A stretch of 64,000 bases of DNA from Chitinophaga pinensis. Lineage in GTDB: Bacteria; Bacteroidota; Bacteroidia; UBA4408. The DNA lies in NCBI GenBank assembly GCA_945872355.1, contig CAMBZU010000004.1, positions 3,609-67,608 on the forward strand, read 5' to 3'. A model generated the notes under the pieces. It searched no databases. It saw nothing but the letters and a program-made list of their open reading frames with translations, and was not told the origin of the DNA. Made by a program: the position numbers and the translations under genes. Every line of letters starts with the position of its first letter. Position 1 is the stretch's first letter. Positions 10,665 to 61,729 of this stretch are shown piece by piece.

Positions 10665-10728
10665 TGTTGTAAATTTCGTGTAAAGCTAAATCATTTTAAC
10701 TTTATTCAAAAGGGAATTAAAAAAAAAG

Positions 10729-10757
10729 ACCTGTCAGCTTTTAAAAACCTAACAGGT
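10729..10757. repeat. REP-like palindrome ACCTGTCAG-CTTTTAAAAAC-CTAACAGGT
   Basis: Imperfect inverted repeat around a TTTTAAAAAC core; a second hairpin with a similar core lies at 10939-10971. Confidence 0.5.
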
Positions 10758-10793
10758 ATATATTGCGCGCTTTTGCCTAGCTTTTGTTGAATT

Positions 10794-10920
10794 TATACCG
10801 ATGTGAAATAAGCAATGGCCCAAATTTTTTCACGGCATTTGTCCCAAACTTTTTTCCGATCGGCATTTACCAATGTATGATTTTAAATGATTGGCATAAT
10901 TTATAAATCACATTGGTATT
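10794..10920. mobile_element. MITE-like element, copy A (127 bp)
   Basis: Terminal inverted repeats ATACCGATGTGA / TCACATTGGTAT. Reverse complement of 61556-61683 with 8 substitutions and 1 gap by manual alignment. Confidence 0.85.
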
Positions 10921-10938
10921 ACATGCTAAATCAAAAAC

Positions 10939-10971
10939 AGCCCTTGCAGATTTTAAAAAACTTCAAGGGTT
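10939..10971. repeat. REP-like palindrome AGCCCTTG...TTTTAAAAAAC...CAAGGGTT
   Basis: Imperfect inverted repeat with a core like that at 10729-10757. Confidence 0.4.
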
Positions 10972-10978
10972 AAAAAAC

Positions 10979-11010
10979 AAAAAAGCCCCTAAAATTGAGA
11001 GGCTTTTTTT
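10979..11010 (-). terminator. Intrinsic terminator of tRNA-Glu/rpsT
   Basis: On the minus strand AAGCCTCT-CAATTTT-AGGGGCTT followed by a T tract, about 20 bp after the rpsT stop. Confidence 0.8.
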
Positions 11011-11028
11011 AAAATATTATTGAAATTA

Positions 11029-11283
11029 CTATGCTAAAGCAGTAACGTGCTTAGTCAATTTTGACTTAATATTACCTGCTTTGTTCTTATGAATTACATT
11101 TTTCTTAGCTAACTTATCAATCATTGAAATTACATCAATTAACTTGGTTTCAGCTTCTTTTTTATCAGCTAATGAACGAAGTGCTTTAATAGCATTACGC
11201 GTAGTTTTTGCGTAATAACGGTTATCAACACGTTTTGCATCGTTTGATCTGATTCTTTTAATTGCTGACTTATGATTAGCCAT
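11029..11283 (-). CDS. rpsT: 30S ribosomal protein S20
   Basis: MANHKSAIKRIR...IDKLAKKNVIHKNKAGNIKSKL. Confidence 0.97.
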   Translation of the reverse strand: MANHKSAIKRIRSNDAKRVDNRYYAKTTRNAIKALRSLADKKEAETKLIDVISMIDKLAKKNVIHKNKAGNIKSKLTKHVTALA

Positions 11284-13771: not shown

Positions 13772-15661
13772 ATGAAAACACTCTTCTCAATTATAGCTAT
13801 TAGCAGTTTAGCACTTGCAAGTTGCAACACAGCTAAACAAACCAGCCGAAGTAATGATGATGACGTTTATTTTAACGCCAAAAACACGCCTCCAGCCAAC
13901 AACAGCAATAACAACAGTGGTAACAACAGCAATGCTGCTAACAATAAAACTTCACAAGGAAGCAGTGATTACACCCCTTCAGAAAATTCGGAAAATAACA
14001 ATTCTAATAGCGGAGGAAACTACGATTATACAAACCAAAATCAGTCAAGTAACACTTCAAGCCAATCGAGCAATGGTGATACCTATGTAACCAATAATTA
14101 TAATAATAACGATTTTGATTATGATAATTATTACGATTACGCTTACGCTTCTAGGATCAGGAGATTTCACTCAGTAAATAACTATTGGAATTATTATGAT
14201 CAATTTTATACCAATTCCTACTATTACAATTACAACCCTAATAGCTACGGTACAAGTATTTACATGGGATACAATTGGTGGGGCCCAGGTTATACTACTA
14301 CAGTAGTATATTCACCAAGTTGGGGTAATGGTTGGAACAATAATTATGGTTGGGGATGGGGATATAACCGCCCATGCTGGGGTTGGGGATATTCACCTGT
14401 ATACTCTTATGGATGGGGATATCCAACTTATGGCAACGCTTACGGATATGGAAATGCTTATGGATGGGGGCACCCATATAATGGTTGGGGATATAACAAT
14501 GGCTATTACAATGGATACAATAATGGCTATTATGATGGTTACAATGCAGGCATGAACAACGGAAACTATTATAATGGTTTTGATAGAAATACCTATTATT
14601 ATGGCCCAAGAACAACTGCAAGCACAACTGGAACAATTGGAAGAGGTTACAGGGGCAATTCGCTTTCACAAAGTTACGAAGAAGCCAATGGTATTGATCA
14701 TGCAAGAGGGATTGACAGAATTATAACTGCAAAAGATATAAACAGTAGTGCTGCCAAACCTGCCAATAACACTAACGGAACAGCTGCTAGACCCTTAGAA
14801 AACAATGCCAGCAAGCCAACATTTGACAGTCGCCCTAACAGTGCTAAAGATAATGCAACTAACACTTCTTATGACACTCGACCTGCAACTAGCAATACTG
14901 CCAAACCAGCAAATGGAAACATTGAAGCTAAACCTGTAAACTCAAACAATAGCAAGCCTTCTGGTACATTTGATAGCAGACCAGCAAATGAAAACCGCCC
15001 AGCTAACAACTATGATAGCAGACCTGCAAACGCAAATGAAAACCGTCCTGCTAATAACTTTGATAGCAGACCAGCAAATGAAAACCGTCCAGCTAACAAC
15101 TATGATAGCAGACCTGCAAACGCAAATGAAAATCGTCCAGCTAACAACTATGATAGCAGACCAGCTAATACTTATGAAAGTAGACCTGAAGTTCCTAGCA
15201 ACAGTAGACCTTCAAACAATTATGAAAGTAGGCCTGCAAGCCCTAGTGAAAACAGACCATCAAACAATAACAACAATTTTGATACTAGACCAAGCAACTC
15301 CCCTGCCCCATCAAACAGCAAACCAAGTTATGAAAGCAGACCTGCAAATCCAGGGACCAATTATAACAATAATCAAAATCGTCCAAGCTACGAATCAAGA
15401 CCAAATACACCATCAAAAAGTGAACCGAGCAATGTAACACCAAATAGAAACAGTGGTGGTTCTGGTTCTCAAAGAAACGATGCAGCTCCGTCGAAGGGAG
15501 GCAGTGGAAATAGTTACTCAAGACCTTCTAATTCGAGCCCATCATATAGCGCACCAAGCGGTGGTGGAAGAAGTTCAGGTGGAAGTTCAATAGGTGGAGG
15601 AAGTAAAAGTGGCGGTAGCAGCGGCAGTGGTGGCGGTAGAAGCAGTGGTGGTAGAAAATAA
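13772..15661 (+). CDS. Lipoprotein with long low-complexity N/Y/G/W, (D/E)SRPAN-repeat and S/G-rich regions
   Basis: Lipobox MKTLFSIIAISSLALASC, short motifs DDVYF and YASRIRRFH, then low-complexity sequence; divergent from proS and upstream of a FadL-like barrel. Confidence 0.85.
   Translation: MKTLFSIIAISSLALASCNTAKQTSRSNDDDVYFNAKNTPPANNSNNNSGNNSNAANNKTSQGSSDYTPSENSENNNSNSGGNYDYTNQNQSSNTSSQSSNGDTYVTNNYNNNDFDYDNYYDYAYASRIRRFHSVNNYWNYYDQFYTNSYYYNYNPNSYGTSIYMGYNWWGPGYTTTVVYSPSWGNGWNNNYGWGWGYNRPCWGWGYSPVYSYGWGYPTYGNAYGYGNAYGWGHPYNGWGYNNGYYNGYNNGYYDGYNAGMNNGNYYNGFDRNTYYYGPRTTASTTGTIGRGYRGNSLSQSYEEANGIDHARGIDRIITAKDINSSAAKPANNTNGTAARPLENNASKPTFDSRPNSAKDNATNTSYDTRPATSNTAKPANGNIEAKPVNSNNSKPSGTFDSRPANENRPANNYDSRPANANENRPANNFDSRPANENRPANNYDSRPANANENRPANNYDSRPANTYESRPEVPSNSRPSNNYESRPASPSENRPSNNNNNFDTRPSNSPAPSNSKPSYESRPANPGTNYNNNQNRPSYESRPNTPSKSEPSNVTPNRNSGGSGSQRNDAAPSKGGSGNSYSRPSNSSPSYSAPSGGGRSSGGSSIGGGSKSGGSSGSGGGRSSGGRK
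14971..15169 (+). repeat. In-frame 90-bp tandem duplication (42+48 bp subunits)
   Basis: TGATAGCAGACCAGCAAATGAAAACCG... begins at 14971 and 15061, with a partial third unit at 15151; encodes DSRPANENRPANNYDSRPANANENRPANNF/Y. Confidence 0.9.
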
Positions 15662-17186: not shown

Positions 17187-17582
17187 ATGAAAAAAAGTCT
17201 ATTTACATCGCTCTTTACTTTATTGATTTTTACCTTTGTTCATGCTCAAGAATTGCGTAAAAGCGGCTCTATATTTGGAAAAATTGAATCAAATGGTGAT
17301 GTGCGCATCAATGGAAGCATCAAAGGAAAATTTGAATCAAATGGGGATATTCGAGTTGCTGGAAGTATTAAAGGTAAAATAGAAAGCAATGGTGATATCC
17401 GTAAAAACGGTTCTATTATGGGTAAAGTAGAGAGCAATGGCGATGTGCGCCTGAACGGAAGCATTGTTGGAAAAATAGAAAGCAATGGCGACATCCGCAA
17501 AAGCGGTAGTATTATTGGCTCAGCACAAGGCGTTAAAAAAGAACAAGCGGCAGTAATGTACTTTTTCGAGTTTTTCGATTAA
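17187..17582 (+). CDS. Secreted 16-aa repeat protein, probable beta-flower family
   Basis: Signal peptide, five full and one partial (I/V)RxxGSIxGK(I/V/F)ESNGD repeats, hydrophobic C-terminal helix QAAVMYFFEFFD. Confidence 0.7.
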   Translation: MKKSLFTSLFTLLIFTFVHAQELRKSGSIFGKIESNGDVRINGSIKGKFESNGDIRVAGSIKGKIESNGDIRKNGSIMGKVESNGDVRLNGSIVGKIESNGDIRKSGSIIGSAQGVKKEQAAVMYFFEFFD

Positions 17583-55900: not shown

Positions 55901-56027
55901 ATACCAATTACACTTTCAATTTAGTCCAATTGCGGCATTACCATATGGTACTAATTTCAAGTAGTATCGGCATTAACCATTGCATATTTATTTTTTAGTT
56001 GGCCTAAAAAATAAATGCAATTGGTAT
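55901..56027. mobile_element. MITE-like element, diverged copy C (127 bp)
   Basis: TIR ATACCAATTACAC / ATGCAATTGGTAT; ATCGGCATT.ACCA at nearly the same offset as in copy A; perfect 13-bp hairpin with TTGGC loop. Confidence 0.7.
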
Positions 56028-61089: not shown

Positions 61090-61371
61090 GTTGTTAATTA
61101 TATTGTAATTTCTTAGTACTAGAAACATACTTGTAAGGATTTAAGAGCTTACCATTTATCCAACTCAACTTTATTGCAAACCCGCTCCTGCAGCGCACCC
61201 ATAAGTTTAAACGTGATTGCCAGGGCAGCGCCCGAAGCACCGCGAAGCTGCATCAACACAAAAAGTAAACACGCGTTGATAATCTGCTTATAGGATAGGT
61301 GCTAGCTTTAAGCAAATTGCTTCGCCTTTGGTTTGCAATTAAGTCTTTTCTCAAGCAGTATTCTGTTGCTA

Positions 61372-61534
61372 ATACCAAATGCAAATATGTTTTAGGCCAA
61401 CGATTTAATTAATAAAATTTTTGAGATTGAGGCGGATATTGCAGGCATAGCAAGCAGCTAATCTCAAAATAGACAACGTAACTATCAAGAATTTTATCTT
61501 AAAGATTGGACAACAATGTATTTGCTTTTAGTAT
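61372..61534. mobile_element. MITE-like element, long copy D (163 bp)
   Basis: TIR ATACCAAATGCAAATA / TATTTGCTTTTAGTAT (14 of 16 complementary); first 30 nt match the reverse complement of copy C at 26 positions. Confidence 0.65.
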
Positions 61535-61555
61535 AATATACATCCGCCATCCTTT

Positions 61556-61683
61556 TATACCAATGTGATTTATAAATTATGCCAATAATTTAAAATCTTA
61601 TATTGGTAAATGCCGATCGGAAAAAAGTTTGGGACAAATGAAGTGAAACAAATTTGGTCCATTACTTATTTCACATCGGTATA
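61556..61683. mobile_element. MITE-like element, copy B (128 bp, TA-flanked)
   Basis: TATACCAATGTGA...TCACATCGGTATA; inverted near-identical copy of 10794-10920. Confidence 0.85.
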
Positions 61684-61692
61684 ACACAAAAC

Positions 61693-61729
61693 AAAAAGAG
61701 GGGCTTCTGAAATTCAGAAGCCCCTCTTT
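61693..61729 (-). terminator. Intrinsic terminator of the T9SS gene
   Basis: AAAGAGGGGCTTCTGAA-A-TTCAGAAGCCCCTCTTT near-perfect palindrome with a T tract on the minus strand. Confidence 0.88.

Follow-up and report, generated by a model that had tools for sequence, protein, structure and literature searches.

Two near-identical elements that lie in inverted orientation within the window (the whole 64-kb stretch of DNA that was analysed), and that are here called copies A and B, are unexceptional representatives of a MITE family with about 50 full-length copies, which are non-coding, 124 bp long and located between genes. Sequence comparison makes it very probable that they represent a genome-wide element lodged in 3-bp TTA/TAA repeats, for which the likely cut-and-paste enzyme, acting in trans, is a DD31E IS630-family transposase; the enzyme's own 1.16-kb elements share the 28-bp ends and 3-bp flanks of the MITE. 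The family, designated family 1, is apparently undescribed, and its interest lies in what probably drives it, namely a subgroup of DD31E IS630 elements whose target has 3 bases.

Copies A and B and their family

Copy A occupies positions 10796..10918 on the plus strand (123 bp) and copy B positions 61558..61681 on the minus strand (124 bp). Each differs from the 124-bp family consensus at 4 positions, copy B belongs to a small subfamily, and together they form the longest inverted repeat within the 64-kb window. The alignment reported in the initial annotation, between 10794-10920 and the reverse complement of 61556-61683 with 8 substitutions and one gap, was reproduced exactly; 7 of the substitutions and the gap lie inside the element, and the eighth substitution falls in the flanking repeat. 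Similarity does drop abruptly to background level outside, as had been noted, but the true ends lie 2 bases further in, at TACC...GGTA, and the outer bases of the proposed termini TATAC/GTAT(A/T) are instead part of a 3-bp TTA/TAA repeat. The 12-bp terminal inverted repeats with one mismatch hold for copy B, whereas copy A as then delimited has two mismatches. The palindrome CCGATCGG, described as central, is indeed present at 10856-10863, but it is the foot of the left hairpin and not a centre of symmetry, and it varies in congeners. No ORF of at least 50 aa overlaps copy A or copy B, and at the Rfam gathering score a tRNA is the sole match in the window, the element itself having no Rfam family.

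What had been seen as two copies proved to be a much larger set. BLASTN against the host assembly (3.40 Mb in 133 contigs, AT-rich with 33.9% GC, 96% complete), the copy-number check that had been proposed, returned 106 loci at E<=1e-3, of which 53 are near full length. Members are short, lack a transposase or other ORF, carry terminal inverted repeats, lie within target site duplications, are multi-copy and mostly intergenic, and have autonomous IS with matching ends. Among the 49 copies of 118–128 bp, the median pairwise distance is 8, equal to that between A and B; 52% of the 1176 pairs are as close as A and B or closer, and 7 pairs are identical. Copy B has two sisters at 1 difference, both on other contigs, while the nearest relatives of copy A are 5 differences away, and none of the 37 copies of exactly 124 bp is identical to the consensus. 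Family 1 is carried by 5 of 7 congeners and by 2 of 33 other relatives.

There is no element at the copy A site in G001, G004 and G005, nor at the copy B site in G001 and G002, and the family must therefore have moved, even if flank divergence at both sites prevents base-exact junctions. In G002 and G005, separate family-1 copies lie elsewhere behind the gene next to copy A, representing independent insertions into the same intergenic region. The relatively recent mobility suggested by the initial annotation is thus borne out for the family, by its 3-bp target repeats, element-free congener sites, independent insertions and identical pairs, but not for the A/B pair, which stands at the median distance and of which copy B has its sisters on other contigs. 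The further suggestion that the pair could seed an inversion found no support: pairs on the same contig are inverted in 9 cases and direct in 9, and in the synteny comparison the genes around A are also adjacent in G001, G004 and G005, and the genes around B in G001 and G002. Since the genes on either side of each copy are neighbours in G001 too, there is no fixed inversion between this genome and G001; the inverted orientation of A and B is chance, and the pair itself is uninformative about an inversion. Locus A was also compared with the contigs of 4 of 24 listed runs from lakes and rivers. Flank contigs extend 26–32 bases into copy A, on both sides in X2, on the left in X6 and on the right in X10, the left contig of X2 alone satisfying the 31-base rule for reaching the element, and X11 stops short of it. 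No empty-site allele, of the kind for which read mapping had been proposed, was seen at copy A among the contigs of these four runs, which show presence only, because contigs drop rare variants. Six RNA runs contained a mere 0.07–0.10 of the sequence words.

Ends and target repeats

The 28-bp ends are of a two-part IS630 type, with an outer TACCRAT and an inner RGYCCAA box. In copy A the left end lies at 10796..10823 (plus strand) and the right end at 10891..10918 (minus strand), with scores of 16.8 and 19.7 bits in a matrix made from IS ends only. The left and right ends are identical at 18 of 28 bases, including 10 of the first 11. On the plus strand, copy A is flanked by TTA at 10793..10795 and again by TTA at 10919..10921; copy B, on the minus strand and in element orientation, has TTA on its left (61682..61684) and a mismatched TAA on its right (61555..61557). 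Both ends are present in 71 elements. In 52 of them the 3-base flanks are identical, 5 show 2-base repeats and none a repeat of 4–8 bases. The flanks are TTA/TTA in 25 cases, TAA/TAA in 27 and mixed in 4 + 4 (Fisher p=1.2e-8), with other flanks in 11; the 19 of 71 elements with unequal flanks, copy B included, count against the preferred explanation.

Three empty-site comparisons each gave a repeat of 3 bp. They involve a family-2 element nested in a family-1 copy on contig C64, an element of G007 (L036) set against C60, and a 161-bp element in the window set against G001, where dropping 3 flank bases fitted best (66 vs 58–60). The C64 case came from seven long copies, of which one on C42 also gave 3 but had lost one end, the rest containing other insertions or deletions, and a search with 17 congener elements yielded one base-exact comparison, 2 that were too diverged and 14 without a paired match. 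A TA duplication at a palindromic target was rejected, as it predicts opposite TTA/TAA flanks, which were seen in 8 of 60 elements, and is contradicted by the empty sites. An inversion between A and B was likewise dismissed as the source of the unequal flanks of copy B, because swapping the flanks does not make both copies match. At the spot of copy B, G001 has about 35–45 extra bases, and a deletion beside the insertion is possible. Mixed TTA/TAA flanks are similarly frequent in the MITEs (8/60) and in autonomous IS (5/42) and could be explained by recombination between copies or by a feature of target repair.

IS630 elements as putative partners

A search with the PF13358 profile found IS630 transposases in 2 of the 5 congeners searched. 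G001 contains a complete 1162-bp element with TTA/TTA flanks and two overlapping ORFs (L050), and G002 a related element of 1166 bp, again with two overlapping ORFs (L049). In both, an A-run is located at the ORF overlap, which fits the IS630 criterion of two ORFs joined by a frameshift, and we infer frameshifting in IS of this type. Their catalytic halves score 112.6 bits (L050) and 124.5 bits (L049) against NF033545, for which the cut-off is 100. The right end of the MITE, taken from the family consensus, agrees with the L050 3' end at 24 of 28 bases, and the left end with the L049 5' end at 21 of 28. In the genome under study, the L049 type is represented by six ends at contig breaks (four of them left ends, two right ends), with 97.8–100% identity, as well as by two inner fragments, and TTA or TAA is found outside 5 of these 6 ends. 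The PF13358 profile gave no match on this genome; the IS is split over contig ends here, and it was BLAST that later found it.

A scan of GTDB genomes confirmed 249 relatives, 80 of which were analysed. For 20 of these 80 IS loci no pair of ends was recovered (8 are truncated by a contig end and 12 stayed under the score threshold), and another 15 were wrongly anchored or of deviating length. This left 45, several of them from the same genomes and one being L050 itself. Identical 3-base flanks are present in 38 of the 45 (20 TTA, 17 TAA, 1 TCA), the others comprising 5 with mixed TTA/TAA and 2 with other flanks. The Bacteroidota loci give the consensus end TACCAA-N14-TAGTCCAA, and the DD31E spacing, with 31 residues separating the second D from the E, occurs 79 times among the 80 loci. 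Derived from 67 distinct IS ends, with flanks and MITE sequence excluded, a matrix scores the ends of A and B at 16.8–19.7 bits, the IS themselves ranging from 16.7 to 38.4. It detects 224 sites of at least 12 bits in this genome versus 7 in the reversed genome, and TTA or TAA lies outside 207 of the 224, the flank being absent from the matrix. Among 49 distant plasmid matches (34–38% identity), the five examined, from Gloeothece, Acaryochloris, Rhizobium, Pseudanabaena and Trichormus, all have TACCA ends and matched 3-base flanks. The target of the IS630 group is described as TA (PMC8533490); the elements studied here have 3-bp TTA/TAA flanks in place of this dinucleotide (38/45 and 5/5). No description of a 3-base or TWA target of an IS630 element was found in the freely available article texts searched. 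A partial DD31E element of a Wolbachia phage is tabulated without a target site (PMC11544213).

Several observations speak against such a partnership. The resident IS starts with TACT, not TACC, has 17–21 of 28 bases in common with the family-1 ends, and is unassembled in its middle, while the best-matching L050 type was not found in this assembly. The MITE interior has no BLAST match to the L049 or L050 IS. A DNA search revealed no such IS in G004, G005 and G007 (87–99% complete), which carry more diverged MITE copies, and conversely G022 has the IS but shows no MITE. If IS630/Tc1/mariner biology is a guide, -1 frameshifting would yield the transposase, which would bind the inner RGYCCAA box, cut at the outer TAC and then insert the element at TWA with a 3-base stagger.

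Hairpin modules and sibling families

Family 1 folds into two hairpins of about 71 and 51 nt. In copy A, the left module spans 10796..10865 on the plus strand (70–71 nt) and the right module 10868..10918, also on the plus strand (51 nt), the latter being found solo elsewhere in the genome too. Stability relative to shuffles is higher for the right-to-left strand (z -4.7 and -6.0) than for the opposite one (-2.2 and -4.0). Two-sided changes affect 4 of 41 pairs in 9 cells among 27 distinct, related sequences; the covariation score exceeds all 500 shuffles and the pair count is attained by 23 of the 500, and this covariation is graded weak.

Sibling families have the ends, the two-hairpin build and the junction in common and differ in the interior. 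Family 2, with 28 full copies in the genome, is represented in the window at 55902..56026 on the plus strand by a 125-bp copy that combines family-1 ends and the two-hairpin build with a different interior and TAA/TAA flanks. The 75 end-paired elements comprise 39 of composition 1L+1R, 16 of 2L+2Ra, 9 of 2L+2Rb and 5 of 3L+2Rb, the remainder being 5 other mixtures and the 161-bp element. We considered whether the inner module ends could serve as working IS ends, but with scores of -12.0 and -11.0 bits they fall well below the outer ends (18.0 and 19.7), which alone look usable, and lone right modules are more simply read as deletions between direct TACCRATGT repeats. The element may have originated when two tiny hairpin modules were joined at the common junction, and sibling families would exchange modules by recombination at that junction. 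The 161-bp element, which has IS630-type ends and TAA/TAA flanks, lies at 61373..61533 on the plus strand, 24 bp from copy B. It is the only one of its kind among the 75, has one TACC end and one TACT end as in the resident IS, and its site is empty in G001 and partly occupied in G002.

Placement relative to genes

Placement was assessed with gene calls that were crude ORF picks. Of 58 family-1 copies, one overlaps a gene call and 3 are at contig edges, compared with an intergenic share of only 17% for TWA sites. Of the 54 copies that could be placed, convergent genes flank 21, where 12% would be expected (p=8e-7), and divergent genes flank 2, where the expectation is 27% (p=2e-5). The element would be read right to left by the nearest upstream gene in 38 of 52 family-1 copies (p=0.001), and the same test gave 14 of 20 for family 2 (p=0.12). 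Copy A is in the commoner orientation and copy B in the rarer. Survival may be filtered by selection on position and orientation, which would account for their intergenic position, usually behind the end of a gene, and for the predominance of one orientation.

The neighbours of copy A are rpsT (11029-11283, minus strand) and an ABC permease gene, and those of copy B a convergent RprY-like regulator gene and a gene for a T9SS-tail protein (minus strand, from 61748 to beyond 64000). Proteins with a T9SS tail are indicative of a Bacteroidota host. The initial annotation placed each copy just downstream of the terminator of a minus-strand gene. A terminator-like hairpin does precede each copy, behind rpsT at 10979..11009 and behind the T9SS-tail protein gene at 61695..61729 (both on the minus strand), but the two contexts are not alike: the distance is about 60 bp for copy A and 13 bp for copy B, and the copies face opposite ways relative to transcription. 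Across the family, such a hairpin lies ahead of 16 of 54 copies versus 120 of 889 other genes, so a preceding terminator is enriched about twofold and is not the rule.

Alternative explanations

The closest competitor of the preferred explanation keeps the same element and enzyme and supposes that only the middle base of TWA is duplicated, the true ends being A-TACC...GGTA-T with a 1-base stagger. In its favour, the complementarity of T and A makes the 1-bp and 3-bp readings yield the same filled and empty sequences, and among the 71 elements with both ends there is no repeated flank with a non-standard outer base. However, deviations from TWA are about equal at the outer and inner flank positions, as later mutation predicts, and so do not favour this version, and 3-bp TAA repeats are known elsewhere in the IS630-Tc1-mariner group, in Fot as described in PMC7386202; we consider the 1-base stagger unlikely. 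It is rather doubtful, too, that the main cause of the persistence of the family is retention of its hairpins by the host as RNA elements, such as the 3' stabilisers or terminators proposed for ERIC. The excess stability of the right-to-left strand, the covariation score, the surplus of copies between convergent genes and the preference for the orientation in which that strand is transcribed are all in line with such a role, and where no terminator lies upstream this orientation is seen in 30 of 38 copies, compared with 9 of 16 where there is one. Yet no site is conserved between species, the two-sided changes amount to just 9 cells in related sequences with a pair count that shuffles can reach, the orientation bias is equally explained by selection against one orientation, and the underlying gene calls were crude.

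Other movers appear very improbable. A resident RAYT (HUH) transposase could in principle spread the element as a REP/REPIN-like palindrome, given that the genome has 10 Y1_Tnp matches (PF01797), that the element is rich in hairpins, and that a solitary left module of family 2 is located upstream of one of the RAYT genes (on C1) and a family-2 end downstream of another (on C71). The RAYT-like genes, however, have their own, unrelated flanking palindromes, none of the ten Y1_Tnp stretches contains a family-1 copy, and the 28-bp ends and 3-bp flanks fit DDE IS630 elements. The IS5/ISL2 (PIF-Harbinger-like) group uses TWA targets and has one PF13359 match in the genome, but that match is an IS with the end GGTCTC, unlike TACC...GGTA, and the IS630 match already accounts for the ends of the MITE; a transposase of this group is as improbable a mover as a RAYT. 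Two further candidates were searched for: the PF01609 match is a 301-aa element whose ends differ from those of the MITE, and ISAzo13 (PF07592) gave no match in 5 genomes, the positive control being likewise silent. Least probable of all is that A and B arose by local duplication, act as a hinge for inversion or reflect an error of assembly. Their inverted orientation on one contig and the unequal flanks at copy B would suit such a reading, but similarity ends at the element ends, the A-B distance is that of the family at large, the neighbours on both sides are unchanged in G001, and the flank contigs of three other runs enter copy A.

Related systems and implications

Most bacterial MITEs have no identified mover, RUP being the sole exception in a 2007 review (PMC2229807). 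RUP, with IS630-Spn1 as its partner in Streptococcus pneumoniae, resembles family 1 as a small MITE tied to an IS630 element by TIR similarity and inserting into other repeats (PMC2229807, PMC3049150, PMC10969869), but differs, going by its description, in its length of 107 bp and its TA target (PMC2229807, PMC3049150). The enterobacterial ERIC, MITEEc1 and MITEPlu5 are described as 123–127 bp long, strongly folding, intergenic, orientation-biased behind genes and linked to an IS630-type transposon through end similarity (PMC6267812, PMC2229807); MITEPlu5/ERIC is given as 123 bp, with a TA duplication and IS630-like ends (PMC6267812). ERIC is one long hairpin family in Gammaproteobacteria, whereas family 1 consists of swappable two-hairpin modules in Bacteroidota. 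Nine pattern matches were found in E. coli K-12, five of which we take to be ERIC. These five are 123 bp with TAC...GTA ends, which the 124 bp and TACC...GGTA of family 1 resemble, but all lack the TAGTCCAA box; the printed 32-base E. coli ends, compared by eye, diverge from family 1 after the first 3–4 bases. The duplication described for ERIC is TA and that of family 1 the 3-bp TWA, and the possibility of TWA flanks in ERIC as well found no support, a 3-bp repeat being present in 0 of the 5 matches. Within the Bacteroidota, MITECca01 of Cardinium is similarly an intergenic MITE, mobile via a parental IS with matching inverted repeats, but it is described as about 240 bp and IS982-derived (PMC9769881).

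Among elements related to the autonomous partners, as distinct from the MITE, an ISAcma28-like element of Acaryochloris has TACCA ends, the DD31E spacing and TTA/TTA flanks, with 34% identity to the catalytic half of L050. Those of Gloeothece, Pseudanabaena, Trichormus and Rhizobium are also of the DD31E subgroup, a spacing of 31 being found in the 4 of 5 with a matched motif. Zator elements have TWA as target. Three-base target repeats occur in the superfamily of Fot and Fot-like pogo elements, with TAA for most Fot as described (PMC7386202). Fot/pogo and Zator/TP36 are, however, eukaryotic (TP36 bacterial) and have other DDE spacings.

We tentatively suggest, with limited conviction, that the DD31E IS630 subgroup of Bacteroidota, cyanobacteria and rhizobia may have traded the TA target of its superfamily for a 3-base TWA stagger, undescribed as such, and that in these freshwater Bacteroidota it may drive an ERIC-like MITE kit in which left and right hairpin modules can be exchanged and the orientation behind genes would be selected at the RNA level. 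Mobilisation in trans is directly testable, as all that this requires is available: the MITE, IS with corresponding ends, transposase ORFs that look intact, and empty sites. Should the 3-base target extend to the DD31E subgroup as a whole, the ends of IS630 elements and their MITEs are misplaced where TA repeats were annotated, and the subgroup provides a natural case for comparing how target length is set by IS630/Tc1/mariner enzymes.

Other repeats

At C39:12118-12389 and C62:21301-21547, family-1 copies contain a third repeat, about 140 bp long and with CCCA...TGGG as its ends, the overlap on C39 being 5 bp. This repeat is possibly tied to the 301-aa DDE_Tnp_1 element on C47, which is presumably IS982-like. 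At the end of contig C42, an IS5-type element end (L001) abuts a fragment of an L049-type IS630 transposase gene. The ten Y1_Tnp matches (L022-L031) are mostly RAYT-like, several of them broken or partly duplicated, and are grouped with their own palindromes. In the window, copy A is flanked by degenerate short palindromes at 10725-10765 and 10940-10975, which by their look we take to be REP-type repeats, the first being cleaner in G001. The region 61190-61330, between convergent genes, is GC-rich and non-coding and has no Rfam match at the gathering score; it is kept in G001 (within an 86% match) and missing in G002. Tandem repeats of 42–48 nt with a coding-like character are found at 14932-15260 and 17277-17516.
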